A DNA stretch of 43,471 bases from Candidatus Omnitrophota bacterium. GTDB lineage: Bacteria > Omnitrophota > Gorgyraeia > Aquiviventales > Aquiviventaceae. Of this stretch, positions 8,155 to 40,341 are shown piece by piece. The first letter of the stretch is position 1. Every line of letters begins with the position of its first letter. The notes under the pieces are model-generated. The model was not told where the DNA came from and searched no databases. It saw nothing but the letters and a program-made list of their open reading frames with translations. The stretch lies in the NCBI GenBank assembly GCA_020057015.1, contig JAGVGS010000107.1, positions 1 through 43,471 of the forward strand. The letters are read 5' to 3'. Both the position numbers and the translations under genes were made by a program.

Positions 8155-8184
8155 TTGACGAGACGTGCAGCCGTTAGGTATACT
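8155..8184 (+). promoter_or_regulatory. Sigma70-like promoter
   Basis: TTGACG (8155-8160), an 18-nt spacer, then TATACT (8179-8184). The same -35/N18/-10 TAnnCT layout recurs upstream of the other two GEMM-I-like leaders. Confidence 0.45.
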
Positions 8185-8204
8185 TTATCTGTAATCTGTA
8201 GCTC

Positions 8205-8311
8205 TCGAGAAAGCCACACCCGTCGTAAGGCGGGGCCGGAAAGCCACGGGTCCTTGACGGATCGCCGGGTTGCCGAAGGGCGGAACCTCAGGATCGCCGG
8301 GTTGCCGAAGG
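8205..8311 (+). promoter_or_regulatory. GEMM-I-like (cyclic-dinucleotide riboswitch-like) leader, divergent 5' half
   Basis: The leader reads GAGAAAGCC, ACA, CCCGUC-GUAA-GGCGGG (a GNRA-capped hairpin), GCCGGAAAGCC, ACGGGUCCUUGACGGAUCGCCGGGUUGCC. The 3' half closely parallels the clear riboswitch at 19651-19692. The GGCAAAC and GACGCAAAGCC junctions are altered. The 21-nt 3' strand GGATCGCCGGGTTGCCGAAGG is present twice, at 8259-8279 and 8291-8311. Confidence 0.5.
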
Positions 8312-8375
8312 AGATAGCGGAGCCTTTCGGAATCCGGCGTTTGTGTTTATACTAGCAGCACATCACAGTGTGTAT

Positions 8376-9182
8376 ATGAGGGTTCATCATCAGATGCTCC
8401 GACAGCAGAAAGTATTCGCCTATCGCATCCGCGGGCGATCGGGATTGAGCCTTGTGGAAATAATGGTCTCGCTCTTCGTAATCCTGGTTACGGCGGAGGC
8501 AGGATATTTGAGCGTCATCCAGTCACTCAGGTATATGGACGTCAATCGCGACGTCCGGCACGCCTACATTGATCTTCAAGCCGTCCTCGAACGCATTCAG
8601 GCCACTCCCCCAACCCAGATTTTTGAAGTCTTCCAGCATAACCAATTGGTGAATGGGACGCTGATTGGAGGCATCACCTTGACCGGGGAGCAGCTTACAG
8701 TGACCTACCTGCCCGGGCAGGTCATGAATGTCGTGAACGCCGGCAACAATACGATCCGATTTACCTATGGTGCGGGAAATGGAACGTACAACGTGAGTGC
8801 TGTGTCGCTGGAGCTCAGAGACGGTAATATGCTCGACAGCAATATTGTCGCCACCTCCACTCCCGTAGCAGGGGCGGGTGGTGCGGTCAATAATGCAGGG
8901 CCAGGTCAGACCTTTACCGTGGGCTTTGCGGCGATACCGGCCGCTGCGCGGAGCGTGTGGTTGAGCGTCACGCTTCAGAATGTCGATGGGGCGGGTGAAG
9001 TGGACGTGTTTGTCAACAATCGCGGACCGTATGCTCCAGGCCCAGCATTCTACGTGGCGGGGGCGTGGACCGGAATGATCTATCTACCCGATGTAACGCC
9101 GCTACATGTCGAGGTCATGAATGCGTGGCAGACCCGAGGGCATGCCATGGGGCGAACGCTCAACGGAATCAAGCTCTGGTAG
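8376..9182 (+). CDS. Prepilin-type (type IV pilin/pseudopilin-like) protein
   Basis: Class III signal RGRSG/LSLVEIMVSLFVILV, with Gly at -1 and Glu at +5. The start is uncertain: GTG 8343, ATG 8376 or ATG 8394. The remainder is a beta-rich domain without recognisable motifs. Confidence 0.7.
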   Translation: MRVHHQMLRQQKVFAYRIRGRSGLSLVEIMVSLFVILVTAEAGYLSVIQSLRYMDVNRDVRHAYIDLQAVLERIQATPPTQIFEVFQHNQLVNGTLIGGITLTGEQLTVTYLPGQVMNVVNAGNNTIRFTYGAGNGTYNVSAVSLELRDGNMLDSNIVATSTPVAGAGGAVNNAGPGQTFTVGFAAIPAAARSVWLSVTLQNVDGAGEVDVFVNNRGPYAPGPAFYVAGAWTGMIYLPDVTPLHVEVMNAWQTRGHAMGRTLNGIKLW

Positions 9183-9193
9183 CGGGGTAAAAC

Positions 9194-10222
9194 ATGCTAA
9201 CAAGACGATCGGACAAGGGTTTCACGCTCATTGAAGTGTTGGCGGCGGGCGGCCTTTTTGCCGTCGTGGCGGGTGCCGCAGGCCTGATGGTGATGGGGGC
9301 CACCGCGACGTGGACCAGGACAGCCGCCGTCCTCGAGCAGGATGGCAAGGCAACCCTGGCGATGGAAGGCATTCGCACCGCCCTGCGAGGCAGTCAACCG
9401 GCGGGTATCGATACCCCCAACCCAGGATTTGACCGTATTCGGTTCATCAGGGGTACTCAGTTTGACCCGATTTCAGGGCAGGTGGCGCGGAATGACGTGC
9501 GGCAGATCAGGGTGGTGGATATTAATGCTGCTGGGGTGGGGCGACTGGTGCTCCAAAATCAGGATGAGACAACAACGTTCCGGACGCTGACACGGGATGT
9601 CACTCTCTTTACGGTGGTGGACTCGGCAATCAATAACACGCTCGCCCCGAATGAGGTGGATGTCACAATCGGCCTGGCAGTCCGAGGGTCTGGAAGGCCC
9701 TCCCTGCAGACCTCGGTGATTTCGACGCGAGGGCTTGGGAACGCCCAGTTAATAGAAGCCGAGAGCGGCGCGCCAGCCGGCGGTGCCTGGACCCCAAACA
9801 ACATCGACTTTACAGCACCAGCATCTTCAATCCCGACGGATGCAAGCGGAAACTTGTTCATTGAAGTAACCCCTTCAGGAAACACCCAGCGGACTCTAAC
9901 ATATTCCTTCAACATTGCTGTAGCTGGCGAGTATCGCATGTCGTGGAGGATCCGGTGGAACTGGAAGGTCGCATGGAATATATGGGTACATCCATATATA
10001 CGGGATTCTTACACGTGGAGAATCGATGGAGGTGTCGACAGGGCTATGAGTCATGCGTTCTTTCCTGATTGGCGCTGGGTCGAAGTCGATACAATACCTT
10101 TGACCGCCGGCTTGCATACATTGGTGATCACGTGGCCAAAGGATCCTTTAAAACCGCGGAATTATGAGGCTTTGGATGCGATCTTTTTCACTACCGAGTC
10201 AGGGGACCCGCCAGCATTGTAA
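9194..10222 (+). CDS. Prepilin-type N-terminal cleavage/methylation domain protein with large C-terminal domain
   Basis: Canonical motif SDKGFTLIEVLAAGGLFAVV. The Trp-rich C-terminal ~130 aa begins AQLIEAESGAP, loosely reminiscent of CBM6/35-type modules (low confidence). Confidence 0.85.
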   Translation: MLTRRSDKGFTLIEVLAAGGLFAVVAGAAGLMVMGATATWTRTAAVLEQDGKATLAMEGIRTALRGSQPAGIDTPNPGFDRIRFIRGTQFDPISGQVARNDVRQIRVVDINAAGVGRLVLQNQDETTTFRTLTRDVTLFTVVDSAINNTLAPNEVDVTIGLAVRGSGRPSLQTSVISTRGLGNAQLIEAESGAPAGGAWTPNNIDFTAPASSIPTDASGNLFIEVTPSGNTQRTLTYSFNIAVAGEYRMSWRIRWNWKVAWNIWVHPYIRDSYTWRIDGGVDRAMSHAFFPDWRWVEVDTIPLTAGLHTLVITWPKDPLKPRNYEALDAIFFTTESGDPPAL

Positions 10223-10239
10223 GGAAGGAGGCGAACGCG

Positions 10240-11433
10240 ATGTTCATGCTCTTATGCCGAAGGCGAAGCGAATCGGCCAGGCGCGGATCAGCGCTGCTGG
10301 GGACCTTGCTGTTGATGTCCACTTTTGTGCTGATTACCGGCTCCACGATTACCATGGCGCTCAATCACGCTGTGCTCACGCAACACTTTGTGGGCATGGC
10401 ACAGGCGTTTTGGAACGCGGAAGCCGGCGCTGCCGAAGGCGTGAGCTGGCTGCTGCGCGCCAACCCGCTGCCAGGGGGAACCGTGATCCTGGGGCAAGGT
10501 TCGAATCCTCCATTTCTTGCCCCAGGTCCTGCTAACGCTGCTAACGAGGTGCAGGTAACTTCCCAGGCTGGCACCGTACAAGGCACCTTCCGCGTAACGG
10601 TAACGCGTGGGGTGGGGTTCGTCTACACCATTGCGAGTAGGGGGACCAGTGCTGCTGAAGGCATCCAACGTACCGTAAGTCGGACTGTTCGGATCACCGC
10701 GCCAATCGTGTGGGAGAGGGAGTTTGATCTCACTATTGGAACTCCAAATACTATTCCGGCACAGGGAACCACGCCGGACTACACGTATTGGGGATGGAAG
10801 TTTGGTCAAGGCGTTTCTCCCACGTTGTACTGGTGGAACGGCGAGTTTGTTGGAGCGTTTGCGGCGATTTCGAGGGCGCTGTTTATCCGTTTGAATGACC
10901 CCATCGCGGGCGGAGACTTTAGCGTTGACCTTTGGGCCGCGTATACGCCTTGTAGACCCGGAGAAGGTAATGGTGATCAGTCACAGTGCGGTACTCCTGC
11001 GGGGAACCCCGGGCACCATACGGAGCGCATGAGCGTATACATCAGCGGCATCCAATATGACATCATGGATCCAGAGCGCGGCCAACAGGAAGGTATGATG
11101 TGGTACAAAAATATGGGCAGTTGCGCCGGAACCATTGATTGCGGTGAGGGAAATCTTGCTGTTCCCGGTGCTCAAGCGGTCCCAATCTACCTGGATCAAC
11201 GGAACAACACGACCACTTTGAATGCAGCCCTTGGCGATAATCTCGACGGAGTCGCGGGCGCGGATGATATCCGAGGCAACATCGTCATTGTGCCGTGGGA
11301 TGCCTGGAATCCACTGGCTTGGAACAACCCATTCAACTTCACAGCAGGCAGCGAGAGCATCAACAATGTGCGTGTGCGGAAAGTCGATAAAACAGGGCGC
11401 ACCGTAGAGCTCCTCGGCTGGAATGCTGAGTAA
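10240..11433 (+). CDS. PilX-like minor pilin/pseudopilin-like protein
   Basis: RBS AAGGAAGGAGG lies upstream of ATG 10240. The N-terminus RRGSALLGTLLLMSTFVLITGSTITMAL resembles the PilX N-terminal domain. The C-terminal region is large, with 6 Cys. Confidence 0.65.
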   Translation: MFMLLCRRRSESARRGSALLGTLLLMSTFVLITGSTITMALNHAVLTQHFVGMAQAFWNAEAGAAEGVSWLLRANPLPGGTVILGQGSNPPFLAPGPANAANEVQVTSQAGTVQGTFRVTVTRGVGFVYTIASRGTSAAEGIQRTVSRTVRITAPIVWEREFDLTIGTPNTIPAQGTTPDYTYWGWKFGQGVSPTLYWWNGEFVGAFAAISRALFIRLNDPIAGGDFSVDLWAAYTPCRPGEGNGDQSQCGTPAGNPGHHTERMSVYISGIQYDIMDPERGQQEGMMWYKNMGSCAGTIDCGEGNLAVPGAQAVPIYLDQRNNTTTLNAALGDNLDGVAGADDIRGNIVIVPWDAWNPLAWNNPFNFTAGSESINNVRVRKVDKTGRTVELLGWNAE

Positions 11434-11475: not shown

Positions 11476-11550
11476 AAAGCGGGGACAGTCACTAATTTCT
11501 GTTGTGCCGACTAGGGTCCAGGGCACAAATTAGTGACTGTCCCCGTTTTT
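11476..11550 (+). repeat. Palindromic ~75-bp element, copy 2 (intact; bidirectional terminator-like)
   Basis: The 23-nt arms AAAGCGGGGACAGTCACTAATTT (11476-11498) and AAATTAGTGACTGTCCCCGTTTT (11527-11549) are complementary apart from one G:T position. An inner stem TTGTGCC/GGCACAA extends the hairpin. A T-run follows and an A-run precedes. Confidence 0.85.
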
Positions 11551-11571: not shown

Positions 11572-13098
11572 ATGTGCTGCCTGAAACGCTTGCCGACTCT
11601 ATTCTTGGTAGCAAGCCCTCTATCGTTCCTCTTAGCGCCTTCGCTGGCATGGGCCGCTGCGGCCGAAGGCAGTGAGACCCTCAAGTGGCTGGTGATCGGC
11701 CTCGTGGTCGTGGCCACCCTCGTCATCGGCCAATTGATTTACGGGTTCTCCCAAAAGGATAAGGCGATCAAGGCTAAGGCCGAGACGCCTGAGGCCCCCG
11801 CCGCGCCGACCCCGGCCATCTACCACCCGAAAGCCGTGGTGCCCTCCATTCTTGATCAGCTGGCGCAAGCCGGTGTCAACCCCAAGCAGCGCGAGCAGCT
11901 GGCCCAGTCGCTTTCGACCATTGTGACCAAGACCGTCGACGCGCAGGTGGATGCCGTCAAGCAAGAGGTCAAGAAGCACTACGACCAAGTCTTGGAGGAG
12001 AAGCAGTGGGCCGAGCGCGCGCTGCAGCGCAAGTATCAAGAGGCGCTGATTGACCGCAACCAGACCGCGCAGGTGCTCGAGAGTATTGCCGAAGGCCTAG
12101 TGGTGGTGAACAACAAGGGCGAAGTGGTGATGATGAATCCGGCCGCCGAGAAACTGCTGGCGGTGCGGCAGGCCGAGCGCGTGGGCAAGCCGCTGGTCGA
12201 ATCGCTCGATGACGATCAGATCATCTCGCTGGTGCAGGGCTCGACCGAGGGCCGCGAGATCGTGGTCAATACGAAGCAAGAGAGCACCAAGCGCGTGCTG
12301 CGCGCGAGCAACGCCGTGGTCACCGATCAGGATGGCCGGGCCGTGGGCATGGTGGCGGTGCTGCATGACGTGACGAAGCAGAAGGAAGTGGAGGATCTCA
12401 AATCCGAGTTCGTCTCCAAGGTCAGCCACGAGCTGCGCACCCCGCTCATGGCGATCCAGTACGCGCTCTCGCTGCTGGATGATCAGATGGCCGGCAGCAT
12501 GTCTGAGGACGCGCAGGCCTTCGTGTCCCTGACCCGTCGTAATCTGGAGCGGCTCAACTTGCTGGTGAGCGACCTGCTCGATCTTTCCAAGCTCGAGGCC
12601 AAGAAGATGGAGCTGCGGCTGGAGCTGATCGCGCTCGGCCCGATTCTGCAGACCGTGTGCGATACGATGGACGCGTGGGCCAAGAGCAAGCAGATCACGC
12701 TGGTGCGGCGCGTGGTGGAAGAGGTGCCCATGATGCGCCTGGATGCGTCGCGCCTGATTCAGGTGCTCACCAACCTGGTGGGCAACGCCATCAAATTCAC
12801 GCCGGAAAAGGGCAAGATCACCGTCGAGGGCAAGCTGGCGGCGGATCAGCAGCACGTGGAAGTGAGCGTCATCGACACCGGGGTGGGGATTGCCCCCGAG
12901 GATCTGCCCAAACTGTTCAACAAGTTTCAGCAAGTGGGCGAGCGCACCGCCAGCGACATGAGCGGCACGGGGTTAGGGCTCGTGATCGCCAAGGAGATCG
13001 TCGAGCTGCACCAGGGCCGGATCTGGGTGGAGAGCGATGGCAAGCGGGGCGCGCGGTTTGTGTTTACCCTGCCGCTGCACGCGGCGGCCGCGGCGTGA
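11572..13098 (+). CDS. Membrane-bound PAS-domain sensor histidine kinase
   Basis: ATG 11572 is chosen because the track start GTG 11533 lies inside the repeat. It has a signal/TM segment, a coiled-coil and a PAS-like region (ESIAEGLVVVNNKGEVVMMNPAAEKLL). H-box is FVSKVSHELRTPL, N-box LVGNAIKFT, G-boxes DTGVGI and GTGLGLVIAKEIVELHQGRIWVES. Confidence 0.9.
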   Translation: MCCLKRLPTLFLVASPLSFLLAPSLAWAAAAEGSETLKWLVIGLVVVATLVIGQLIYGFSQKDKAIKAKAETPEAPAAPTPAIYHPKAVVPSILDQLAQAGVNPKQREQLAQSLSTIVTKTVDAQVDAVKQEVKKHYDQVLEEKQWAERALQRKYQEALIDRNQTAQVLESIAEGLVVVNNKGEVVMMNPAAEKLLAVRQAERVGKPLVESLDDDQIISLVQGSTEGREIVVNTKQESTKRVLRASNAVVTDQDGRAVGMVAVLHDVTKQKEVEDLKSEFVSKVSHELRTPLMAIQYALSLLDDQMAGSMSEDAQAFVSLTRRNLERLNLLVSDLLDLSKLEAKKMELRLELIALGPILQTVCDTMDAWAKSKQITLVRRVVEEVPMMRLDASRLIQVLTNLVGNAIKFTPEKGKITVEGKLAADQQHVEVSVIDTGVGIAPEDLPKLFNKFQQVGERTASDMSGTGLGLVIAKEIVELHQGRIWVESDGKRGARFVFTLPLHAAAAA

Positions 13099-14135: not shown

Positions 14136-14137
14136 GG

Positions 14138-14947
14138 ATGTACGCCTCGTATTGGGGCCTGCGTGAAAAGCCCTTCGAGAACACGCCAGACCCGCGCTTT
14201 TTTTACGCCTCCCAGCAGCATCGCGAAGCCGAAGCGCGCATGCTGTACTGCATCCGCGAGCGCAAAGGGGCCGGCCTGCTCACCGGGGTGTTTGGCTGCG
14301 GCAAGACCGTGGTAGGGCAGGTGGTGCTCAAGGAGCTCAACCAGGAGCGCTATCGCACCGCGGTGCTCACCAACCCCCGCCTGAATGACCTCGATTTGCT
14401 GCGGCTGATCGCGCACTACCTGGGGGCCTCGCCGCTGGCCGCCACCAAGGCCGACGTGCTGATCCAGCTCGAGATGATCCTGACGGAGAACGCCAAGGAA
14501 GGGCGCGATAGCGTGGTGCTGATTGACGAGGCGCACACGATTCAAAGCCCCGAGGTGTTCGAAGAGCTGCGCCTGCTGCTCAATTGCCAGTGGCAGCAGC
14601 GCTTTCTGCTCACCCTCCTGCTGTTCGGCCAGCCAGAGCTGGCGCGCAACATCGACCAGAACAAGCCCTTGGAGCAGCGCATCGGCGTGAAGGCCTCGCT
14701 CGGGCCCATGAGTTTTGAGGAAACCAGCGCCTATGTGGTGCATCGGCTGCGCGTGGCCGGGCACGAGGAGCCAGGCGGCGTGTTTTCCTACGAGGCGCTG
14801 CGCGTGGTGCACGACTCCACCGGCGGCATCCCCCGGCGGGTCAACCGGCTGTGCGACATGCTGCTGCTGGCCGGCATGGGGGCCCGTACCGCCCGCATCG
14901 AGCCGCCGCTGGTGCAGGAAGAAGTGGCTGGGCTGCAGACGGCATGA
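14138..14947 (+). CDS. ExeA/GspA/MshM-like AAA ATPase (AAA_22)
   Basis: N-terminal YWGLREKPFENTPDPRFFYASQQHREAEARMLY. Walker A is GVFGCGKT and Walker B VVLIDEAH. No peptidoglycan-binding extension is present. Confidence 0.8.
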   Translation: MYASYWGLREKPFENTPDPRFFYASQQHREAEARMLYCIRERKGAGLLTGVFGCGKTVVGQVVLKELNQERYRTAVLTNPRLNDLDLLRLIAHYLGASPLAATKADVLIQLEMILTENAKEGRDSVVLIDEAHTIQSPEVFEELRLLLNCQWQQRFLLTLLLFGQPELARNIDQNKPLEQRIGVKASLGPMSFEETSAYVVHRLRVAGHEEPGGVFSYEALRVVHDSTGGIPRRVNRLCDMLLLAGMGARTARIEPPLVQEEVAGLQTA

Positions 14948-16580: not shown

Positions 16581-16602
16581 CCACCGCGGCCTTTTATTTT
16601 GC

Positions 16603-18756: not shown

Positions 18757-18866
18757 CTGATAAGGTAAACGCACGTTCTGGAATTCCTCGTACGACCCAT
18801 TCCGTTTTACCCTCGCGCGAAATCCTGTGCACATGTGTAGATTTTTTCCACCGCAGCGAGGCTGCC

Positions 18867-33700: not shown

Positions 33701-36700
33701 AGCAGCCAGAACATCACCTGGACCACCAGCGGGACGGTCGCCAATGTGAAGCTGGACTACTCGACCGATGGGGGTGCTAGCTACCCGAACGTGATCACGG
33801 CCTCGGTGACCAACACCGGCTCCTACGGGTGGACGATTCCTGATGCGATTGGCACGACCCTGCGCGTGAAGGTCGAGGACGTGCTCGATATTGATGCGAA
33901 GGATGAGTCCGATGCCAACTTCAAGATCAAGGGCTCGGTGACCGTGACCGCGCCCAATGGTGGTGAGCTGTGGGATGTTGGCGCGAGTCAAAACATCACG
34001 TGGACCAAGACCGGCACCATTGCCAACGTCAAGATTGAGTTCTCCACCGATGGCGGCACCAACTACCCCGGCGGCGGGCAAGTGATCGCCAATTCATTCA
34101 ACGCCGGAGCGTTCAGCTACAGCTGGACGGTGCCGGACTATATTTACACCACCCTGCGCGTGCGGCTGACTGATGTCGGCGATGCGACGGTGGTGGATCA
34201 GTCCAACAACAACTTCACGGTGCGTGGGGCCTTCACGCTCACCGCGCCGAATGGCGGAGAAAAGTGGAAAGTCGGGGCAACGCAAGTCATCAGCTGGACC
34301 ACGTTTGGGACGATTCCCAATGTGAAGCTGGAGTACTCCAGCAACGGCGGCACGGACTACAGCAACATTGCGGCCTCCGCGGCCAACACCGGCACGTATA
34401 ACTGGACCCTACCTAACGCGATCTCGACCACCGCAAAGGTACGGGTCTCCAATGCAGCCGATGCCGGTACGCTGGATGTCTCGAACGCCAACTTTAAGAT
34501 TATGGGGAACTTCACGGTCACGGCGCCGGATGGCGGCGAAGTGCTGACTGCGGGCAGCAGCTATAACGTCACCTGGACGAACCAGGGCACGGTGTCCAAC
34601 GTCGAGCTGAAATACTCCACCAATAGCGGCGGGGCCTACGGCAATACCATCGTGGGCTCGGCTTCGAACACTGGAACCTATAGCTGGACGGTGCCGGATG
34701 CGATCTCCTCCACCCTGCGGGTGCGGGTGGCTGACGCAACCGATGCGACCGATGCGTTTGATACCTCCAATGCGGACTTCAAGATTCGCGCCGGGTTTAC
34801 CCTGACCGCACCCAATGGGAGTGAGGCCTGGACCGTCGGCACGGCGCGCAATGTGACATGGACCACCGCCGGCACGGTGGCCAACGTGAAGCTCGAGTAC
34901 TCCATCAACGGCGGCACCGATTATGTCAATATCATCGGCTCAACGGCCAACAGCAGTCCCTATAGCTGGACAATTCCCGATGCGATTACCACCGCCGGCC
35001 GGGTGCGGGTCTCGGATGTGAATGACAGCACGGCCAATGATGCCTCGAATGCGAACTTCAAGATCCAAGGGGTGCTCACCATGACCGCGCCCAACGGCGG
35101 GGAGAAGTGGACCGTCAACAGCGCCCGGTCGGTGAGCTGGGACCGCGTCGGATCCATTGCGAACGTGAAACTCGACTTCTCCACGAACGGCGGCTCGATC
35201 TACGCGCCCATTATCGCCTCCACCGCGAACACAGGGACGTATGCCTGGACGATTCCAGATAGCGTCTCGACCGACTGTTTGGTGAAGGTGACCGACACCA
35301 ATGATGCGACGGTGACCGATGCCTCCAACGCGGCCTTCAAGATTCAGGCCGGCTTTGTGGTGACCGCGCCCAACGGCGGCGAGGTGTGGGGCATCGGCTC
35401 AGCCCGCACGATTGCATGGACGACCAATGGAACCGTGGCTTTTGTCAAGATCGACTACTCTACGGATGGCGGGACTAATTACACCAACCAGATTACGACG
35501 TCTACCGCCAACACGGGGACCTACAACTGGACCATCCCGGATGCGATCTCTGGGACGGTGCGGGTGAAAGTCTCCCAAACCACGGATGCCGAGGCGTTTG
35601 ACACTTCGGATGGCAATTTCCGCATCCGTATCAGCGTGGCCTTGGTGGCCCCCAATGGGGCCGAGGTCTGGCGCGTGGGCCAGTCGCGCAACGTCACCTG
35701 GTCAATCAGCGGCACGATTCCCAACGTGAAGCTGCAGTACTCCCGCGATGGGTTCAATGCGGATCTGCAAACCATCAACATCAGTGCGCCCCAAACCGGC
35801 AGTTACGCCTGGACGATCCCGGATGCCATCTCCAACACGGTGCGCGTGCGCGTCAGCGACCCCAATGACATCGGGGCCTTGGATGACTCGAACGCCGACT
35901 TTAGGATCATTGCGAACTTTACCGTGACGGCGCCGAATGGCAGCGAGCAATGGACGGTCGGCAGCGCGCAAACCGTCACGTGGACGTCCGCAGGCTCGGT
36001 GTCCAATGTCAAGCTCGAGTACTCCACCAACTCGGGCGGGTCATGGAACCCCCTCCTGGGTTCCACCCCGAATGACGGTACCCAGGGCTGGACCGTGCCC
36101 GATGCGATCAGTGCCAATGCGCGTTTGCGCGTCAGCGACCCGGCCGACAGCACGTCAGATGATACCTCGGACAATGACTTCAAGATCCGGGCGTTCTTTG
36201 CCCTCAGCGCGCCCAATGGCAGCGAAATCTGGACGGTGAATGAGAGCCGCAACATCACGTGGACGAACACCGGCACGGTGCCCAATGTGAAGCTGGAGTA
36301 TTCCACGGATGGCGGCGCGAACTACAACCAAACCATTGCGGCCTCAACGGGTAATACGGGCACGTATGCCTGGACCGTGCCGGATGCCATTTCCACGACC
36401 GTGCGGGTCAAGGTGACGTCCACTACCGATGTGGATGGCAATGATGCCTCGGATGCGAACTTCAAGATCCGCGGCGCCTTTAATCTCACGGCGCCCAACG
36501 GGGCAGAGAACTGGAAGATTGCCAACAACCACACCATCACCTGGACAACCACCGGCACGATGGCCAACGTCAAGCTCTCCTACTCGACCAACGGAGGGGC
36601 CGCGTTCCCGAACACCATCATCGCCTCGGTGGCGAACACCAATAGCTACGTGTGGAATGTGGCCGATGCGCCCACCACGGCCGGCCGCGTGCGGGTGGAA

Positions 36701-38956
36701 AGCGTGCTGGACAACACGGTGTATGATGACTCGAATGCCAACTTCAACATCCAGGGTAACTTCACGCTGACGTTGCCGAACGGCGGCGAGTCCTGGAGTG
36801 TGGGGGAGAACCGAAACATCACCTGGAACTGGGGCGGCACGATTCCCAACGTGAAGCTCACTTACTCGACCGACAGCGGCAGCACGTTCCCGAGCGTGAT
36901 CACGGCCTCGGCGCCCAACGGGCCAGGCTCCAGCGGCAGCTTCAGCTACGCGTGGACCGTGCCGAATAGCATCACCACAACCGCGCGGGTCAAGGTGGAG
37001 GACGTCACGGATGGGGCGGTGTTCGATGCGTCCAACGCCGACTTCAAGATCCAGGGTAAGCTGACCCTCATCGCCCCCAACGGCAGCGACCGCTGGGTCG
37101 TGAATGAGACCAAGCCGATTCAGTGGAGCACCGCCGGCAGCATCAACAACGTGAAACTCGAGTACTCGACCGACAGCGGCAGCACGTATCCGAACACCAT
37201 CGTGGCCTCGGTGGCCAACGGGGGCAGCTACAACTGGGTCGTGCCCAACACGACGTCCACCACGGCGCGTGTACGGGTCCTCAACGTGGCGGACAACACC
37301 GTGGCCGATGCCTCGGATACCGACTTTACGATCGACCTGTATCAAATTACCGTGCATATCAAGGATCTCTTGACGAACAATGCGCTCGATCAGGTCGGGG
37401 TGGATGGCGCCAACAGCCTGAACGCCGCCTACCTGTGGCAGCAGTCGGGCATCACCTCGCCGATCACGAAAGGCCTGCAATACGGGACCTGGCCGATCAA
37501 GTTCAGCCGGGTCGAGTACGGCGACCAAGTGATCAATGTCGTGGCCGATAGGGACCAGACGATGAACGTGTACATGGAGACCCAGGTGGTGCACCTGTGG
37601 GAAGTGGTGACCGAGATGGCGTATAACTCCACCACCGATACCGTGGCGATTGCGGCCACGCTGCGTCGCGATGGGTCCACGGTCATCGGCGTCACCTCGA
37701 ATACGGTCAAATTCTATGATGGCGGTGCGCTGATCAAGACCTTTACCACGAATGGGGCCCCGGATGCCCAGGGCTTCTATAACTACACGTGGACCACTCC
37801 CACGGGCCTCGTGGCCGGCAAGGTGTACAATGTGGTCAGCAGCGGCACGATCGCGACGGGTGGCGTGTTCAACACGCCGAAGACCTTCAGCATCACGGAG
37901 GTTTCGAAGCTGCAGGATGTGCAAAATACGATCAATGATAAGTTGAATATGTCGATGAGCACGATGCAGACCAACATCCGCGGTGATTTGAGCGCGCAGA
38001 CCGGCACGATTACCGGGGCGTTGACGGCGCAGACATCGGCGATCAACACGTCGCTATCGAACTTTGAGACCAAGAGCGACGTGCAGATCAACGCCCTGAA
38101 GCTGCGCGCGGATGAGATCAAGGACGCCGGCGGCGAGCTGCAGAAGAGCAGCGAAGACTTGAACGCCACCAACGCCAAGTTCTCTGGCAACTTGATCACG
38201 CCGAAGAACGCGCTGATCAACGACAAGGATGTGAAGATCCAGTACCGGGCCATTCCGAACTTAGTACCGCTCATCACGATCACGGCTCAGGATACGAGCA
38301 ACCAAAGCGTGACCGTGGTCTCGGGAGAGCCGATGAGCCTGGTGGACGGCTACGCTGACATGTACGAATACACGATCGATAAGATCACCTCCCCGCCGTA
38401 CACGCCCGGCAAGGCCGTGAGCGTGGTGGTGGAGGCCGAGGTCTTCACCTACGTGCTCGATGCCGCGAAGGGCAAGGTGAAGAACGTCGAAGCGGGCTCT
38501 TTCATCGTGGAATCCACGACGCTGAGCACCCTCGAGGGCCTCGTGGCTTCGCAGGGCGGCCTGAAGGATCTGGTGCAGAGCATGGTGGCCACGATGAATG
38601 GGCTGAAAGGCAACGTGGCCAGCCGTGGGGATAGCATGGCCATGTTGGATGCCCTCAACCGGAAGATCGACCAATTGCCCAGGCTGATCGTGCAGGAGAT
38701 GAACCGCGGCAGCACAATGACCGACATGAAAGACGAGATCGCGCAGATCAGTGAGACCTTGCAGGATTTGGCGGGCAAGGATCTCGGGCTGGATCTGACC
38801 AATATCGTGGGCAAGGCGATCGATGAGTCCTCTGGGATCAAGGAGCTGCGCCAGTCGGCTGATCGGGTGCAGGGCAGCACCGAGCTCATGCAGAAAATCG
38901 TCGAACAAAAGTGGGGAGGCATCGATGCGCCGGTCATCCACGCGATCTACCAGTAA
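21740..38956 (+). CDS. Giant (5738 aa) secreted or surface repeat protein: unique N-terminal ~400 aa, 49 tandem Ig-like modules, ~540-aa C-terminal region
   Basis: A single uninterrupted ORF. Start is ATG 21740, 2 nt after the upstream stop, or ATG 21776 behind GGAGAGGGGG. Signal-like N-terminus is WRVIAAGVLGILTAGLLAFPQPAEA/F. Module consensus is sLTlTAPNGGE.W.VGs.QNITWT.tGsI.NVKLEYSTdGGstYpn.I.aSt.n.GsY.WTIPDaIst..RVkV.D..d..v.D.SnAnFkIrG. The C-terminus has beta-sandwich-like and low-complexity helical segments. Confidence 0.9.
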   Translation: MTPANRRGGEQSMGATSWRSWRVIAAGVLGILTAGLLAFPQPAEAFQVKRVLRNTTAFQLLNGEEVKTYDLTSQLGGVPLDMTKCFIVASTFPSSGFNTQTDAFIAIDDPSTIMAARRTGTAQVDIQFMVIEFVDGVSVQSGLTVISETALTKNIVLPASVDLAKSFALITWRSFNHNTQATHDDKNLYSADLTAVNNLRLQRSDQAGTFLNDVYYQVVSFDEDVTVTKGTVDIDAVQDAGETSDNGTAMVATINPALTSVNDAMMFFTIRPSAAVNGVDQQYKVDGYINATNAITFTRNNNTNSVSIVYYLLNFSNEMYVQHARNTATLPNGTASGTFNLPTVTTLARTFGTFSSSGPGTAGNADNPSLYVTGALASVAGPQTQVTLARSGTSGATAVSYMAPELPPVNVTAPDTASIIWKVGEARTITWKHADDVAANTAAIDLSVNGGSAWLGTSITCDEGARTMASDVCTWTIPDSLGGTSVIGNNLRIRVRDTVLAARNFDPTDVSFEIIGSITVTAPNGSEVWYVGDTNRNITWTNTGNHTTDKVNIYLSENGGSTYPTAIVTGGSAPTVESGTYAWNPMPDKIGTDRRVRVESQNDPAPIDVFDTSNANFEIRGSVTVTYPNGAETLETQKAYNITWNKTGTFAPNNEVNIYYSKNSGGQYPTTLVTNQAAGASSGSYSWTPVAGDVSDFARVKVTQRDNSNVTDESNADFLVKPSIVVSYPNGGENLVVGTPTNVTWTTNGAGLANVKIEYSINGGGAYSPIIENDNIADDGIVTNNGTRSWDVPDVIGGNVLIKISNPSISAINDVSDAIFRVKGQTKVLIPNGTELWPVGGSRNIQWSNVGTFTSNVDIRFSTNGGADGYPGGNTIVAGHTNTGASGSYTWNPVVDIAGGYNNAMRIKVLPVDSVNVAEDTSDASFTIHGTLTLAAPNGGQTWVYGGAAQNITWTKTGAIGNVELRYSTNSGGGFGSPFATGLNPTAGTPYAWTLPDSLSNAARIQVRTVDQPLVIYDDSDADFFLKGSLTVTAPNTAVTWYRGDIQNVTWTRAGTTGAMTGNVDIHYTPDNGSNYYAISVNNVLASAGTYPWTIPTDAPNDTVQSDTVKVRVRLSSDTVVSDESNVTFKIKPRLTLTAPNTNVAWIVGTSQNITWTTAGSVPKVKLSYSTTGGSPYANSIVADLSNVNSYAWTIPDAIGTQLRVLVAKDTPVDPDSAVEDFSDADFEIKGSLTLTSPNLGTEVWIVGSSQNITWTKTGSLTGNVKLYYSTDGGSTYVGDPASPFATVAVTAGSYAWTIPDAIDNDLKVKVVYVNDTAVADASNAVFTVKGSLTITAPNTGTEIWDVNTLHNITWTKTGTIGNVDLSLSLDGGTDGYATSIVTGVTSTSPYAWTIPSNTTLTVQARVKIAPVTAAQAAADTSDANFRLRGSFTLTAPSGPENWIVGASQNITWTSLGGIANAKLEYSRDSGSDGYPYLITASTPAGAGSYAWTVGWAAADADKTNSSTIRVRVSDAATADVNDTSDADFTIRGSLALTAPNGGENWLVGSSQNIAWTRTGKIPNVKLVYSVDSGVDGYPESTPNQTIVGSTSGEALSYAWTIPDKIGTALRVKIYDLSSVSATPDTSNADFTIRGSLAVTAPNGSESWTYGGAAQNVTWTLNGTVTGNVKLYYSNNGGSSYMGDPGTPFATVAASAGTYAWTIPDDLTTQARVKITHAGSPTADPDESNANFTIKGVLVLVAPNGGEDWRADESQNITWTRTGTIALVNLYYSTNSGGTYPVTIASAVNGGNLSRAWTIPNTLSVTTARVKIEDNGNTAVLDTSDADFIIKPKLTLLTPNGSEVWYVNNNTDDITWTTNGTVAEVNLKYATDGSTFSNPIATQLANINAYDNWVIPDALSTTVKVRVESFTDAANVSDVSNADFTIRGAITVTAPNTNVTWIVGDSQNVTWTKVGSLTGNVNLYYSTNGGSSYLGDPGTPFATPTVASGSYALTIPDAIGSNLKVKAVLANNTSVTDESNTAFTVKGSLIISAPNGGEVWDVNTLNNITWTKTGTIGNVDLSLSLDGGTDAYATSIVTGISATSPYAWTIPSNTTLTAQARVKIAPVTAAQAAADTSDANFRLRGSFTLTAPNGGEPWIVGAANNVTWTLLGGMVNAKLEYTRDGGSTYHTIVASTAAGSGSYAWTVDWANSDNSKQVLNSNTMRVRISDAADVTVQDSSNANFTVKGSLTLAAPNGGENWLVGGAQNITWTRTGYLPNVKLEYSTDGGSTYPNEIVASTSGEALSYAWTIPNAIDNDLRVQVTDLSAVAAAADVSNANFTIRGALTLTSPNGGEQLGIAGSHNITWTRTGTVTENVKLVYSTDGGSTYPEPSKVIVSDVVAATQTYAWTVPDAPTIQARVKIIHTPVATPLADPDESNANFSIKGTLTIVAPNGAETWKSGESRNITWTRGGSIASVRLSYSKDSGATFPTQIIASTAGADLAYGWTVPDVVTAADRTKIRVKIEDVGDPTVSDTSNADFTIRPQLTLTAPNGGQTWLVGASQNITWTKNGSIPNVKLVYSTDSGSTYPEAAPDNTITGSTPGADLSFAWTVPDKVGTLLRVKIVQTDDAAVVDTSDGDFAIKGSLALTSPNGGETWLVNESRAVTWTRVGTTGTMAGNVELAYSINGGTGYGAAFATPLASALTYAWTVPDAIGTQLRVRVRAEGDTSVSDESNANFTIKGILALTAPNGGQTWGVGTTPNITWTRTGSITNVKLDYSVDSGGSFPNAIIASTDASTGTYAWTVPAGAVLSTQARVRVTDAADAAVADDSNADFNLVGVLVLTAPNGGEIWAYNTSQNVTWTRSGNISNVKLEYSTNGGSSYPNVIIGSTAAATQSYTWTVPNEHSATVRVKVSDAAAAFTGIVSDTSNANFKIRSGLTLSAPDGGEVWTVGSAQSVGWGSSGTVNNVMLEYSTNGGSSYDFLVTNSAPNTGSYSWTVPDAIGTSVRVKITDAEDAAASDASNGNFKIRGSLTLGAPNGGEQWGIATSKNVTWTRNGSIANVKLDYSLNGGTDYDGSIVASTAAAAGTYAWTIPDFPTATARVKVADAADALLVFDTSNANFSIKGSVNVTAPNGGETWIVGADNNVTWTKFGSISSVEIRYSENNGSTWPAGNIIVGSTSAAAGTYTWTIPDKIGNSVLVRITDTADTSTLDDSNAVFSIKGSYALTSPNGSETWVVGESRNITWTKTGTLGNAKLEMSVNGGSVYPTEIVNPVASVDGTYGWTVPDAIGTQVRVKITLLSDTAVNDASSGNFTIKGSLTLNAPNGGEVWTVGSNQPITWSRVGSIANVKLVYSTDGGVSYPEVGPDNTIVASTAAAAGSYSWTIPDAITTTARVKAIDFSDASVSDTSNANFKIAGSLALTAPNGGEAWLIGGSQNITWTKQGAIANVKLEYSTNSGGAYPNEIIASTSAAAGTYAWTIPDAPSTAVRVKITNTSDSTVNDASNADFNIRGTLTVVAPNGSEVWTVGESRNITWSKTGSISNVELRYSTNSGSSYPTVIVASTAASALSYAWTVPDAISTTARVKITDTTDSAVTDTSNADFKIRGALLVTAPNGGETWIVGAAQNITWTRTGSIANVKLDYATDGGIGYTNPITASTAGAAGTYAWTIPDAIGNQVRVRIGDAADDNNVYDMSDNNLTIKGAVTLNAPNGAESWIVGASQNITWSKSGTLGNCKLEYSTTSGAAYPNEIVNPIACATLTYAWTIPDAISAGVRVKLTNLVDTGVSDASNADFNIKGSLTLTSPNGSETWLVGETRSITWTKTGSIATARLDYSTNGGVAYPNVITASTGAGGLSFLWTVPDNMSTNVKVRIRNVDDTTVEDESNASFKIAGSFTLNSPNGAEKWPAGSLQSLTWSKTGSIANAKLELSTDGGSTYPTLIVATTPASNLSYAWTLGSATSTQCRVKITDVSDSGVNDATNANFKIMGGFSLTAPNGGEVWVVGSSQNITWTTSGTVANVKLDYSTDGGASYPNVITASVTNTGSYGWTIPDAIGTTLRVKVEDVLDIDAKDESDANFKIKGSVTVTAPNGGELWDVGASQNITWTKTGTIANVKIEFSTDGGTNYPGGGQVIANSFNAGAFSYSWTVPDYIYTTLRVRLTDVGDATVVDQSNNNFTVRGAFTLTAPNGGEKWKVGATQVISWTTFGTIPNVKLEYSSNGGTDYSNIAASAANTGTYNWTLPNAISTTAKVRVSNAADAGTLDVSNANFKIMGNFTVTAPDGGEVLTAGSSYNVTWTNQGTVSNVELKYSTNSGGAYGNTIVGSASNTGTYSWTVPDAISSTLRVRVADATDATDAFDTSNADFKIRAGFTLTAPNGSEAWTVGTARNVTWTTAGTVANVKLEYSINGGTDYVNIIGSTANSSPYSWTIPDAITTAGRVRVSDVNDSTANDASNANFKIQGVLTMTAPNGGEKWTVNSARSVSWDRVGSIANVKLDFSTNGGSIYAPIIASTANTGTYAWTIPDSVSTDCLVKVTDTNDATVTDASNAAFKIQAGFVVTAPNGGEVWGIGSARTIAWTTNGTVAFVKIDYSTDGGTNYTNQITTSTANTGTYNWTIPDAISGTVRVKVSQTTDAEAFDTSDGNFRIRISVALVAPNGAEVWRVGQSRNVTWSISGTIPNVKLQYSRDGFNADLQTINISAPQTGSYAWTIPDAISNTVRVRVSDPNDIGALDDSNADFRIIANFTVTAPNGSEQWTVGSAQTVTWTSAGSVSNVKLEYSTNSGGSWNPLLGSTPNDGTQGWTVPDAISANARLRVSDPADSTSDDTSDNDFKIRAFFALSAPNGSEIWTVNESRNITWTNTGTVPNVKLEYSTDGGANYNQTIAASTGNTGTYAWTVPDAISTTVRVKVTSTTDVDGNDASDANFKIRGAFNLTAPNGAENWKIANNHTITWTTTGTMANVKLSYSTNGGAAFPNTIIASVANTNSYVWNVADAPTTAGRVRVESVLDNTVYDDSNANFNIQGNFTLTLPNGGESWSVGENRNITWNWGGTIPNVKLTYSTDSGSTFPSVITASAPNGPGSSGSFSYAWTVPNSITTTARVKVEDVTDGAVFDASNADFKIQGKLTLIAPNGSDRWVVNETKPIQWSTAGSINNVKLEYSTDSGSTYPNTIVASVANGGSYNWVVPNTTSTTARVRVLNVADNTVADASDTDFTIDLYQITVHIKDLLTNNALDQVGVDGANSLNAAYLWQQSGITSPITKGLQYGTWPIKFSRVEYGDQVINVVADRDQTMNVYMETQVVHLWEVVTEMAYNSTTDTVAIAATLRRDGSTVIGVTSNTVKFYDGGALIKTFTTNGAPDAQGFYNYTWTTPTGLVAGKVYNVVSSGTIATGGVFNTPKTFSITEVSKLQDVQNTINDKLNMSMSTMQTNIRGDLSAQTGTITGALTAQTSAINTSLSNFETKSDVQINALKLRADEIKDAGGELQKSSEDLNATNAKFSGNLITPKNALINDKDVKIQYRAIPNLVPLITITAQDTSNQSVTVVSGEPMSLVDGYADMYEYTIDKITSPPYTPGKAVSVVVEAEVFTYVLDAAKGKVKNVEAGSFIVESTTLSTLEGLVASQGGLKDLVQSMVATMNGLKGNVASRGDSMAMLDALNRKIDQLPRLIVQEMNRGSTMTDMKDEIAQISETLQDLAGKDLGLDLTNIVGKAIDESSGIKELRQSADRVQGSTELMQKIVEQKWGGIDAPVIHAIYQ
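22964..37339 (+). repeat. 49 tandem in-frame coding modules (93-108 aa each, 4792 aa in total)
   Basis: Counted module by module from the translation. The lengths sum exactly to aa 409-5200 of the ORF. Each module carries APNG, an (I/V)TW strand, an Asp-box-like S-x-D-G-G-x-x-Y/W motif, (A/S)WT(I/V)P and a terminal (A/G)(D/N)F.I.(G/P/A). Confidence 0.95.
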
Positions 38957-38957: not shown

Positions 38958-39791
38958 ATGGCGCAGGCCCTGCTCGCCTTGGCCCTCACCCTGCTGGCCG
39001 GCCTTCGGGTGGAGGCGGCGGTCGAGCGCGAGCCGGTGATGCTCTCGGTCGTGGCGGTGAATCCCTCGGCAGAGAAGACCCAAACACTCCCCATCCGCAT
39101 CGACTTGCCCAGGGAAGTGAAGCCGGCCGATGTGCTGGACGTAGGCGAGCTGACGCTCGAGTACGATGATGACCAGCAGAACTACTACGTCTTCAAGGAC
39201 TTGGTGGCACTCGAACCCAAGCAAACGCTGGTCTTCGAAGTGCGGGTGAAGGACGTGTGGTTCGTGCCGCAGCCAGAGCTGGATAGCTTGCGCGATTATG
39301 CGAGCCTGCTCATGAGCCGGATCAAAAACACCGAGTACGCGAACACGGCTAAGGCGCTTACCGAGAGCATCCACAGCCGCCTTGGCGAGATCGCCGCTAC
39401 GCAGGATGATGAGACGCTAAGCCGCAAGGCCCGCATCGGCGCGTACCGGCACCACCTGGACGTGGTAGCCCAGGTGAAGGAAGACCTCAGTCGGATGGAG
39501 AAGCTGCTCACGTTCACCGGTGGGCCGCCGGTGCCGGAGCTGCTGGAGCAATCTTCGCTGAAATCCGATGCGCCGTCCAAGACGACCACCTGGATGGTCA
39601 TCTTTCTGATCCTGATCTTCATCGGACTCTTGGGTGGGCAGTTTTTCTTCACCTGGAGCCGGCGCGCCAACGTGACCCGCGACCTCTCGATCCTGAGGGA
39701 GGCCACCTTTGGCAAGCAGCCCGGCAAAGCCCCCACCGGGCAGGTCGGCAACGGGCACGGGGCGGCCCCAGGCACCGCACCCCGGCGCTAG
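38958..39791 (+). CDS. Signal-peptide protein with C-terminal TM anchor, unknown function
   Basis: ATG 38958 is 2 nt after the giant-gene stop. Signal peptide is MAQALLALALTLLAGLRVEA/A. C-terminal TM is TWMVIFLILIFIGLLGGQFFF, followed by a basic Gly/Pro-rich tail. Confidence 0.6.
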   Translation: MAQALLALALTLLAGLRVEAAVEREPVMLSVVAVNPSAEKTQTLPIRIDLPREVKPADVLDVGELTLEYDDDQQNYYVFKDLVALEPKQTLVFEVRVKDVWFVPQPELDSLRDYASLLMSRIKNTEYANTAKALTESIHSRLGEIAATQDDETLSRKARIGAYRHHLDVVAQVKEDLSRMEKLLTFTGGPPVPELLEQSSLKSDAPSKTTTWMVIFLILIFIGLLGGQFFFTWSRRANVTRDLSILREATFGKQPGKAPTGQVGNGHGAAPGTAPRR

Positions 39792-39803: not shown

Positions 39804-40067
39804 ATGGCCGCCGGCCTGCTGCACGTCGTCGTCCTTAGCCCCGAGCAGGTGCTCTTTGAGGGCGATGCCGACCATGTGATCGCCCCCGGAGAGTATGGGG
39901 TCTTCGAAATCCTGCCCTTCCACCGGCCCTTTGGCAGCTTGCTGCTGCCTGGACACCTCATCATTGATTCCCAGGCCCTGCCCATCGAGCGGGGGGTGCT
40001 GCGCGTTGAGCGAGACACTGTTACTGCCCTTGTCGAACTGCCGCCTGAAAACGGGGACAGTTACTAA
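39804..40067 (+). CDS. atpC: F-type ATPase epsilon subunit, beta-sandwich domain only (87 aa)
   Basis: LLHVVVLSPEQVLFEGDADHVIAPGEYGVFEILPFHRPFGSLLLPGHLII..ERGVLRVERDTVTALVE matches the epsilon N-terminal domain pattern. There is no C-terminal helical hairpin. The last ~6 codons and the stop lie inside palindromic element copy 3. Confidence 0.7.
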   Translation: MAAGLLHVVVLSPEQVLFEGDADHVIAPGEYGVFEILPFHRPFGSLLLPGHLIIDSQALPIERGVLRVERDTVTALVELPPENGDSY

Positions 40068-40123
40068 TTTGTGCCCGGACCCCTAGACGGCACACCGAAA
40101 ATTAGTGACTGTCCCTGTTTTTT
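40048..40123 (-). repeat. Palindromic ~75-bp element, copy 3 (inverted orientation)
   Basis: AAAACGGGGACAGTTACTAATTT GTGCCCGGACCCCTAGACGGCACACCGA AAATTAGTGACTGTCCCTGTTTTTT. The central asymmetric part matches the reverse complement of copies 1 and 2. Arms are conserved and a T-run follows. Confidence 0.8.
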
Positions 40124-40134
40124 GCTCGCCTGCC

Positions 40135-40164
40135 TTGCTTTTTTGCGCTACGAACAGGTATGCT
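40135..40164 (+). promoter_or_regulatory. Putative sigma70-like promoter
   Basis: TTGCTT (40135-40140), an 18-nt spacer, then TATGCT (40159-40164). Confidence 0.35.
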
Positions 40165-40207
40165 TTAACTACATAGAATTAAGCAGGTTTGGTCAACTTT
40201 AGTGCTG

Positions 40208-40284
40208 TAGAAGGGCAAACGATCCGCAAGGATCGGGCGCAAAGCCGCAAGTCCTGCGCAGGCAGGATGGTTGGGCTGCCGGCA
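40208..40284 (+). promoter_or_regulatory. GEMM-I-like riboswitch aptamer (variant 3' strand)
   Basis: GAAGGGCAAAC, GAUCC-GCAA-GGAUC, GGGCGCAAAGCC, GCAA, GUCCUGC-GCAG-GCAGGAU, GGUUGGGCUGCC. The GGGCAAAC junction, GNRA-capped hairpin and GCGCAAAGCC junction are conserved. The 3' strand GGUUGGGCUGCC deviates from CAGCCGGGUUGCC. Confidence 0.6.
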
Positions 40285-40300
40285 CAAGCCAGCGTGATTG

Positions 40301-40332
40301 CGCCCATCCACCGCGGATGGGCGTTTGCTGTT
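40301..40332 (+). terminator. Terminator-like hairpin (expression platform), weak U-tract
   Basis: A 9-bp stem CGCCCATCC/GGATGGGCG with loop ACCGC, followed by TTTGCTGTT. TTGCGCCC (40298-40305) is the exact complement of the aptamer segment GGGCGCAA (40235-40242). The RBS GAGGAG (40333-40338) follows immediately. Confidence 0.5.
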
Positions 40333-40341
40333 GAGGAGACC

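Follow-up and report, generated by a model that had tools for sequence, protein, structure and literature searches.

A 43,471-base contig of Candidatus Omnitrophota, analyzed here in its entirety and referred to as the window, carries three transcription units that each begin with a leader containing a GEMM-I riboswitch aptamer, a promoter-like site upstream of it and a terminator-type hairpin complementary to one of its strands. Leader 1 precedes prepilin-like genes, leader 2 an operon for a giant surface protein and leader 3 genes of an F-type ATPase; the second and third leaders recur, in synteny, in related Omnitrophota. We propose, with a probability of about 0.72, that the window holds a conserved surface-machinery neighborhood in which the three units are controlled by cyclic di-GMP (c-di-GMP) through riboswitches with OFF logic, and in which HD-GYP proteins encoded between leaders 1 and 2 would bring about de-repression.

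The contig start cuts a C25 peptidase gene and its end cuts the gene for the ATPase gamma subunit. All Pfam-supported genes lie on the plus strand and the nine long minus-strand open reading frames (ORFs) in the window have no Pfam match, in agreement with a preliminary description of this DNA, which had placed every gene on one strand.

Three GEMM-I aptamers with a canonical pocket

An Rfam search of the window at curated thresholds gave three matches, all on the plus strand, all above their gathering scores and all belonging to the c-di-GMP-I clan CL00126, so that the GEMM-I-type aptamers previously noted in the three leaders could be confirmed. They lie at 8204-8278 (leader 1; RF03167, 71.3 bits, E 4.6e-15), 19619-19696 (leader 2; RF03167, 68.9 bits) and 40204-40283 (leader 3; RF01051, 62.3 bits). 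A second, permissive scan with Rfam at E<=0.1 detected no further riboswitch in the window. The intergenic gaps that contain the three leaders, with lengths of 244, 428 and 274 nucleotides (nt), exceed all others of the contig. Helix P1a is capped by a GNRA tetraloop in each case, namely GUAA, GAAA and GCAA in leaders 1, 2 and 3. In an alignment of six aptamers, three from the window and three from relatives, the canonical GEMM-I helices are formed in 94.4% of cells and nine base pairs are changed on both sides; none of 500 shuffles reached either value, and slid controls paired at 26-49%. The P1a and P2 helices are backed by compensatory changes in this alignment.

The ligand pocket is canonical in all three leaders. 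A G stands immediately 5′ of the G-C pair (position 20 of Vc2), an A immediately 3′ (position 47) and a C (position 92) in the junction ahead of the P1 3′ strand, and these equivalents of G20, A47 and C92 are kept in 6/6 aptamers of the alignment. Positions 20, 47 and 92 contact c-di-GMP (PMC5888326; PMC11218506). Given this pocket, c-di-GMP is the predicted ligand, rather than cyclic GMP-AMP (cGAMP) or the ligand of the GGC variant.

We considered whether the aptamers might instead sense 3′3′-cGAMP, as GEMM-Ib, or the GGC-variant ligand, since RF03167 outscores RF01051 in leaders 1 and 2 and natural GEMM-I pocket variants do sense cGAMP, the cGAMP-selective variants of Geobacter having an altered pocket (PMC7266159; PMC8835794). 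The consensus lines of the two models have one conspicuous difference in the core, GACGCGAA in RF03167 against GACGCAAA in RF01051, and at this column leaders 1 and 2, which read CCGGAAAG and ACGCAAAG, carry the canonical A. We take the name GGC to refer to the variant in which the position-47 equivalent is G in place of A; the A of leaders 1 and 2 does not agree with it, and their high RF03167 scores reflect overall similarity, for example the short P2 loop, and not the distinguishing nucleotide of the variant. Selectivity for cGAMP is reportedly marked by A at the position-20 equivalent (attributed to Kellenberger, Nelson and Ren, 2015). The three window aptamers and the three from relatives have G there throughout, which speaks against GEMM-Ib, and 3′3′-cGAMP, which the preliminary description had named as a possible HD-GYP substrate, is not indicated. 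The HD-GYP, MshEN and PilZ domains of the neighborhood are c-di-GMP parts as well, and a ligand other than c-di-GMP thus appears improbable.

A shared promoter form

A sigma-70-like promoter site with a spacer of 18 nt precedes each aptamer: TTGACG-N18-TATACT at 8155-8184 in leader 1, TTGACG-N18-TAGGCT at 19556-19585 in leader 2 and TTGCTT-N18-TATGCT at 40135-40164 in leader 3, all on the plus strand. The -35/N18/TAnnCT site described earlier is therefore present at all three leaders. The pattern AGGTAnnCTTTA, common to the leaders, occurs three times in the window, at these leaders and nowhere else (0.31 occurrences expected; 1 of 100 shuffles reached three). We also ran the expression TTG[AC]N18GGTANNNT over 305 kb that include the window and DNA of relatives. 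It matched each of the ten distinct riboswitch leaders and, apart from these, no more than two distinct sites; the shared form can be written TTGACx-N16-GG-TAnnnT. A sigma-54 promoter at the TGCCTGGCAC palindrome of leader 2 (TGGCAC-N5-CTGCA, 19934-19949) was considered and rejected, as its spacing varies in orthologues and its start would fall downstream of the ribosome-binding site.

Terminators complementary to aptamer strands

A scan for intrinsic terminators found clear examples behind leaders 2 and 3 (19703-19727 and 40300-40324). With its T-run, terminator T1 of leader 2 occupies 19703-19737, and its 5′ arm GCGUCCUCCG is complementary to the 3′ strand of aptamer helix P1a, GGGUAGGACGC; the terminator of leader 3 occupies 40300-40334, and its 5′ arm GCGCCCAUCC is likewise complementary to the P1a 3′ strand GGAUCGGGCGC. 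Leader 1 is built differently. Its expression platform (8291-8349) begins with a hairpin 5′ arm at 8291-8311 that repeats exactly the 21 nt of the aptamer 3′ half (8259-8279); the 3′ arm ends near 8339 and is followed by the tract UUUGUGUUU. The expression platform is coupled to the aptamer in all three leaders, the terminator 5′ arms being complementary to an aptamer strand.

Folds of leader 2 and 3 transcripts ending before the terminator 3′ arm show the pairing of P1a with the terminator 5′ arm. This duplex, in which the 3′ strand of P1a joins the 5′ arm of the terminator, was examined in seven leaders. Its energy is -13.7 to -19.1 kcal/mol, a level that 0-1 of 300 shuffles attained in 5/7, and when duplexes were compared among leaders each P1a strand preferred its own terminator. 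The two strands co-vary (GGACGC/GCGUCC against GGGCGC/GCGCCC), an A/G difference in the aptamer being met by U/C in the terminator. For leader 1, folding indicates that the second 21-nt copy can take the place of the first in pairing with the aptamer 5′ half.

As the terminator 5′ arm pairs with an aptamer strand, c-di-GMP is predicted to terminate transcription. Without ligand, the aptamer strand would pair with the terminator 5′ arm and allow readthrough; with c-di-GMP bound, the aptamer would retain this strand, the terminator would form and transcription would stop. The competing strand in leaders 2 and 3 would be the P1a 3′ strand, and in leader 1 the aptamer 5′ half would pair with the duplicated copy of the aptamer 3′ half and keep that copy out of the terminator. 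All three leaders would thus be OFF switches, as are the class I c-di-GMP riboswitches of Clostridioides difficile (PMC6200980).

The opposite logic, in which c-di-GMP binding switches the units ON and induces the surface machinery, as for adhesins, would suit the usual role of c-di-GMP in favoring adhesion, and pilus ATPases bearing MshEN or PilZ domains, such as those found in relatives, are typically activated by c-di-GMP. However, no part of a terminator falls within an aptamer, the distance from P1 being 6-17 nt, and a bound aptamer would hence be unable to sequester it; the sole strong alternative partner of the terminator 5′ arm is the aptamer strand that the ligand-bound fold holds. 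We therefore consider ON switches rather unlikely and retain the OFF logic.

Leader 2 contains a second terminator-like hairpin, T2 (19784-19826), with a U7 tract, which is conserved in the orthologous leaders. All leaders of the leader-2 type have, 3′ of T1, this hairpin of the form CTACGGC...GCCGTAG followed by a T7 tract (L021 ~5828-5856; L019 ~5832-5858; L017 ~5842-5870; L numbers denote loci on other contigs, in their own coordinates). We also considered whether the stretch separating T1 from T2 in leader 2 encodes a leader peptide, and rejected this because its reading frames vary among orthologues.

Leaders 2 and 3 at orthologous positions in relatives

The named relatives in the comparison are Candidatus Omnitrophota, with one metagenome-assembled genome labeled Planctomycetia. 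The order found in the window, giant-gene C-terminus, 277-aa protein (aa, amino acids), epsilon, c, b/delta and alpha, also occurs in L001, L003, L006, L012, L013 and L014. Five relatives have a GEMM-I aptamer upstream of the c gene, four of them being L001, L002, L012 and L014. Those of L001 (44.7 bits) and L002 (47.6 bits) are Rfam matches; those of L012 and L014, which carry large insertions and fall below threshold, were read by eye. The aptamer sits between epsilon and c, as in the window, in four relatives, among them L001, L012 and L014, and precedes c without a preceding epsilon gene in L002. No GEMM-I was detected, even at E<=0.1, where epsilon and c abut (L003, L006, L009 and L013). 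The order RayT-like gene, small protein and giant gene recurs in three distinct relatives, represented by L017/L018, L019/L020 and L021, again with GEMM-I before the RayT-like gene (36.3 bits, 56.8 bits in L019 and 65.1 bits in L021, the first value being that of L017/L018).

Leaders 2 and 3 thus stand at orthologous positions although the proteins are only 40-47% identical, and the orthologous leaders share the promoter and near-identical terminators; judged from these positions, leaders 2 and 3 are ancestral. In the ~190 kb of related Omnitrophota DNA that was scanned, every GEMM-I lies at a leader-2 or leader-3 position and none elsewhere.

The insertions in the GEMM-I aptamers of relatives measure from tens to more than 100 nt and interrupt the P2 loop, helix P1a or the core at the point where GGAC adjoins GC (L001 9294-9455; L012 2545-2750; L014 3838-4005; L017 5538-5716), and some are palindromic repeats. 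Owing to such large insertions, the aptamers of relatives score below the Rfam gathering thresholds or are aligned only partly.

Could three aptamers lie close together by chance, in a GEMM-I-rich genome in which this stretch is not special? Geobacter sulfurreducens has 17 GEMM-I copies (PMC8835794) and C. difficile 16 c-di-GMP riboswitches (PMC6200980), and by a rough estimate that assumes a genome of ~2 Mb with ~17 copies a triple within 32 kb at some place in the genome would not be rare. Against this, two of the three positions are orthologous in relatives, the scanned DNA of relatives has GEMM-I at these two positions only, and the regulated genes form one conserved syntenic block. A chance cluster is accordingly of low probability. 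The preliminary description had spoken of a dense local second-messenger regulon linking surface structures and energy conversion; orthologous leaders 2 and 3 with the same promoter and near-identical terminators argue for a cyclic-dinucleotide-regulated unit and not a chance cluster, and this part of the claim stands, without the energy conversion that is discussed below.

Genes behind the leaders

The earlier assignment of the three leaders to pilin-like genes, a giant surface-protein operon and ATP synthase genes is largely upheld and can be refined: leader 1 precedes three prepilin-type genes, a RayT-like gene and a gene for a 174-aa protein come before the giant gene, and c, b/delta, alpha and gamma follow leader 3, the ATPase epsilon gene being upstream of it.

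The three prepilin/pseudopilin-like genes behind leader 1 span 8376-11433 (8376-9182, 9194-10222 and 10240-11433, plus strand) and encode the prepilin-type N-termini RSG/LSLVEIM, KG/FTLIEVL and the GspK-like RGSALLGTLLL. No homologue of the first (8376-9182) was detectable.

Leader 2 precedes five genes on the plus strand, encoding the RayT-like protein, the 174-aa protein, a 5738-aa protein, the 277-aa protein and epsilon. The 174-aa protein (21214-21738) has a signal peptide and is conserved upstream of giant genes. The 5738-aa surface protein (21740-38956) has an N-terminal signal or transmembrane (TM) segment and tens of ~95-aa Kre9_KNH-like immunoglobulin (Ig) repeats. The 277-aa protein (38958-39791) has a signal peptide and a C-terminal TM segment and is 43-61% identical in relatives.

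The RayT-like membrane protein (19967-21217, 416 aa) combines a Y1_Tnp-like N-terminal domain with a TM segment. Its family has an extracytoplasmic C-terminal domain after the TM helix and is annotated as RayT by JGI, and its gene is always the first of the giant-gene operon. The degenerate HUH motif (QLHLCF) and the TM segment speak against a typical RAYT (REP-associated tyrosine transposase; REP, repetitive extragenic palindrome). The family is conserved in full length in Omnitrophota, with 36-48% identity over ~98% of the query, and this and its conserved position led us to reject a mobile insertion between riboswitch and giant gene. Three TGCCWGGCA palindromes (19850-19943) lie just upstream of the RayT-like gene, and such palindromes are a conserved feature of the orthologous leaders: in the window and in every orthologue, each leader has one to four of them between T2 and the RayT-like start (L017 5871-5990; L019 5894; L021 5870-5900), and none was found elsewhere in the 305 kb. 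They resemble the GTGTCAGACAC hairpins of a nearby true RAYT (see below) and could be binding sites of the RayT-like protein.

An F-type ATPase locus without subunit a

The ATPase genes, all on the plus strand, comprise a short F1 epsilon subunit (39804-40067) upstream of leader 3 and, downstream of it, c (40342-40563), a b/delta fusion (40570-41295), alpha (41292-42788) and the gamma gene cut by the contig end (42788-43471). No gene for subunit a (ATP-synt_A, PF00119) was found in the window or within +/-10 kb in any compared locus; it may lie elsewhere in the genome. These loci therefore lack the arrangement of a canonical F1Fo operon, in which a is encoded with c and b. In relatives, gamma and beta come next, and after them genes for an MshEN protein, a T2SSE ATPase that in some cases carries PilZ, T2SSF and pseudopilins (T2SS, type II secretion system); MshEN, T2SSE, T2SSF and pseudopilins follow the orthologous clusters in L002, L003, L006 and L009. 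The neighborhood corresponds to that of the non-respiratory 'symbiotic' F-type ATPase of Omnitrophota described by Seymour et al. 2023 (PMC10066038), which is marked by ATPase genes within 10 kb of type IV pilus genes and by an alpha subunit that groups with type 2/3 ATPases. We provisionally assign the present ATPase to this type, on the grounds of synteny and the missing subunit a.

If the ATPase were a housekeeping ATP synthase, c-di-GMP would control energy conversion. The alpha subunit passes the equivalog cut-offs for atpA (TIGR00962, 544 bits against 484; NF009884, 557 against 554) and finds its best PDB matches among ordinary F1 alpha chains. In most lineages the GRNP loop and the membrane Glu are preserved in c. 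On the other hand, the gene for subunit a is absent from all loci, epsilon consists of the 80-aa beta-sandwich domain only, the membrane Glu of the c-ring is replaced by Gln in L009 (243-461), and the cluster always lies between the giant surface-protein gene and pilus/T2SS-like genes. We regard a housekeeping role as unlikely. The link to energy conversion drawn in the preliminary description is not supported, given that subunit a is missing from the locus and that its synteny is with the giant gene and, among relatives, also with pilus genes of the MshEN/PilZ-T2SSE kind; a probable 'symbiotic' ATPase within the surface-machinery neighborhood is the reading that we keep.

Small GIY-YIG nuclease genes were observed within the ATPase cluster of two relatives (L006/L007 12321-12644 and L012 3281-3544), inserted in one at the alpha/gamma junction and in the other just after c.

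A signaling operon with two HD-GYP proteins

The seven genes between leaders 1 and 2 form a signaling operon (11572-18725, plus strand). It encodes a PAS histidine kinase (11572-13098), an HD-GYP protein (13095-14135), two AAA_22 (ExeA-like) proteins (14138-14947 and 14944-15762), a HAMP protein (15762-16580), a second HD-GYP protein (16603-17637) and a coiled-coil protein (17634-18725). The domains proposed earlier for this operon, two HD-GYP proteins, a PAS histidine kinase and a HAMP sensor, were all recovered. Both HD-GYP proteins have an HD_5 domain with the HD and HHExxDGxGYP motifs (LHDIGI...HHEREDGSGYP and LHDIGM...HHEREQGRGYP), which by motif places them in the c-di-GMP phosphodiesterase family. 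The two enzymes, together with the PAS kinase and the HAMP protein, would lower c-di-GMP, and this would lead to joint de-repression of the pseudopilins, the giant protein and the ATPase.

Palindromes, insertion sequences and upstream genes

The palindromes ahead of leaders 1 and 3 belong to a single REP-like family, GGGACAGTCACTAATTT...AAATTAGTGACTGTCCC, flanked by runs of A and T. At leader 1 the left part of the element lies at 6999-7063 and the outer right arm resumes at 8138-8151, the arms 6999-7012 and 8138-8151 being 100% complementary across an IS30-family insertion sequence (IS; 7064-8137, plus strand). This IS has terminal inverted repeats, an ACTGT duplication and a transposase gene (7121-8131; HTH_38 and rve); it splits the REP 17 nt upstream of the -35 site of leader 1, and its insertion looks recent. 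A further copy with a T-run marks the end of the pilin-like operon at 11476-11549, where no riboswitch follows, and the copy before leader 3, also with a T-run (40052-40117), is inverted relative to the others. Leader 2 is preceded by a hairpin of a distinct type, GTGTCAGACAC, belonging to an IS200/RAYT-type element (18724-19545, plus strand) in which such hairpins (18724-18756 and 19510-19545) stand on both sides of a Y1 transposase gene. This gene (18867-19538), with its intact HUH motif (NHVHLL) and its hairpins on both sides, has the marks of a true REP/RAYT system.

A palindrome does precede each leader, as the preliminary description had remarked, in two families; it is not part of the leader design and is not conserved upstream of the orthologous leaders. 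Since the orthologous leaders are flanked by other, lineage-specific palindromic repeats, the palindromes are best read as repeat and IS debris gathering in the few long intergenic regions, and maybe as terminators for the transcription unit before them. A related REP palindrome, GGGGACAGTAACTAATTT...AAATTAGTTACTGTCCCC, occurs at L015 6597-6700 on an unrelated-looking metagenome contig of 1.07 Mb (Ga0213882_10000003), so that the REP family is not confined to the source genome; no GEMM-I was found in two unrelated metagenome loci that matched the REP palindrome.

The genes in the first part of the window (1-7037), which are unrelated to the leaders, encode the partial C25 (gingipain-type) peptidase, a GDSL-like protein, a PqqD-like protein with a radical SAM/SPASM enzyme (a pair of the type found with ribosomally synthesized and post-translationally modified peptides) and a Peptidase_S24 and NTP_transf_5 fusion.

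Discussion

Several observations weigh against our interpretation of the window as a c-di-GMP-repressed surface-machinery neighborhood. The OFF logic of leader 1 is less certain than that of leaders 2 and 3, because the terminator-type hairpin forms either way in the full-length minimum-energy fold, and it rests on kinetic competition between the two identical 21-nt copies. Leader 1 has no orthologue in the relatives, its first pilin-like gene being an orphan. The antiterminator complementarity is weak in L001 and L002, and the operon with the kinase and HD-GYP genes does not adjoin the cluster in any relative locus compared. The ligand call rests on three nucleotides, and RF03167 is the best-scoring model for leaders 1 and 2. 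Finally, the MshEN/PilZ ATPases of relatives suggest that c-di-GMP activates the pilus at the protein level, which is awkward to reconcile with repression.

Both the riboswitch class and its terminator-type logic are familiar; the novelty lies in the regulon and in the fact that it is conserved in a phylum still uncultured. A close parallel is the regulon of C. difficile (PMC6200980), where the OFF switches are several class I aptamers, each with a terminator, that control genes for surface structures and motility (flagella, an adhesin and a protease) and one second messenger co-ordinates several operons. The targets in the window, known from sequence alone, differ in being a giant Ig-repeat operon, pseudopilins and an F-type ATPase, and the three copies lie within 32 kb and next to HD-GYP genes. 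GEMM-Ib riboswitches for 3′3′-cGAMP were reportedly described in Geobacter by Kellenberger and Nelson in 2015. The Geobacter elements (PMC8835794) resemble those of the window in their fold, their many copies per genome and their control of extracellular and surface functions; the window aptamers keep G at the position-20 equivalent, for which c-di-GMP is predicted, and serve another gene set. Two tandem rho-independent terminators after the aptamer, as in the leader-2 family, are known from the Bc1 riboswitch of Bacillus thuringiensis (PMC11218506), whereas here T2 lies ~50 nt past the end of the T-run of T1 and is followed by the conserved TGCCWGGCA palindromes.

The published Omnitrophota loci (PMC10066038; bioRxiv 10.1101/2023.11.21.568195) likewise include F-type ATPase genes near pilus or T2SS-like genes, and giant ORFs; the order giant gene, 277-aa gene, epsilon and c, and the missing subunit a, are shown here from synteny. 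West-Roberts et al. described T2SS-like loci and PilZ genes around giant genes, and the PilZ genes near giant genes in the published work on Omnitrophota giant ORFs already hinted at c-di-GMP. By text search, riboswitches are mentioned neither in PMC10066038 nor in bioRxiv 10.1101/2023.11.21.568195; c-di-GMP is not mentioned in the former and appears in the latter only via PilZ and GGDEF domains, and the latter does not mention ATP synthase. The literature searched yielded no paper that connects riboswitches with Omnitrophota.

A genetic link between an F1-type ATPase and very large surface proteins, in an organism with a host-dependent lifestyle, also characterizes the gliding motor of Mycoplasma mobile. 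The Omnitrophota cluster, known from its genes alone, differs in keeping the c subunit and the b/delta stalk, and its alpha subunit scores 405 bits against the MMOB1660 model, for which the cut-off is 600.

Going further, we may speculate, tentatively, that the riboswitches and the HD-GYP/kinase operon are the master switch of a composite surface machine of Omnitrophota, whose expression would be set off only by a drop in c-di-GMP, as might occur when the cell touches a host or prey. Its parts would be the giant Ig-repeat protein, an F-type rotary ATPase without subunit a and type-IV-pilus-like pseudopilins. The RayT-like membrane protein, perhaps domesticated, could bind the TGCCWGGCA palindromes behind the second terminator in the giant-gene leader and so provide a second checkpoint behind T2.

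Omnitrophota are uncultured, ultra-small and probably predatory or parasitic, and both the giant proteins and the F-type ATPase linked to their pili await an explanation. The literature searched offered no published handle on the regulation of either. Many Omnitrophota aptamers with large insertions fall below the Rfam thresholds, and the list of GEMM-I targets now gains an F-type ATPase operon and a giant-gene operon. The leaders, being short RNAs, lend themselves to in vitro assays for which no culture of the organism is needed. Conserved riboswitches, predicted to sense c-di-GMP, before both operons would provide a concrete, testable signal and would place giant protein, ATPase and pseudopilins in a single regulon.

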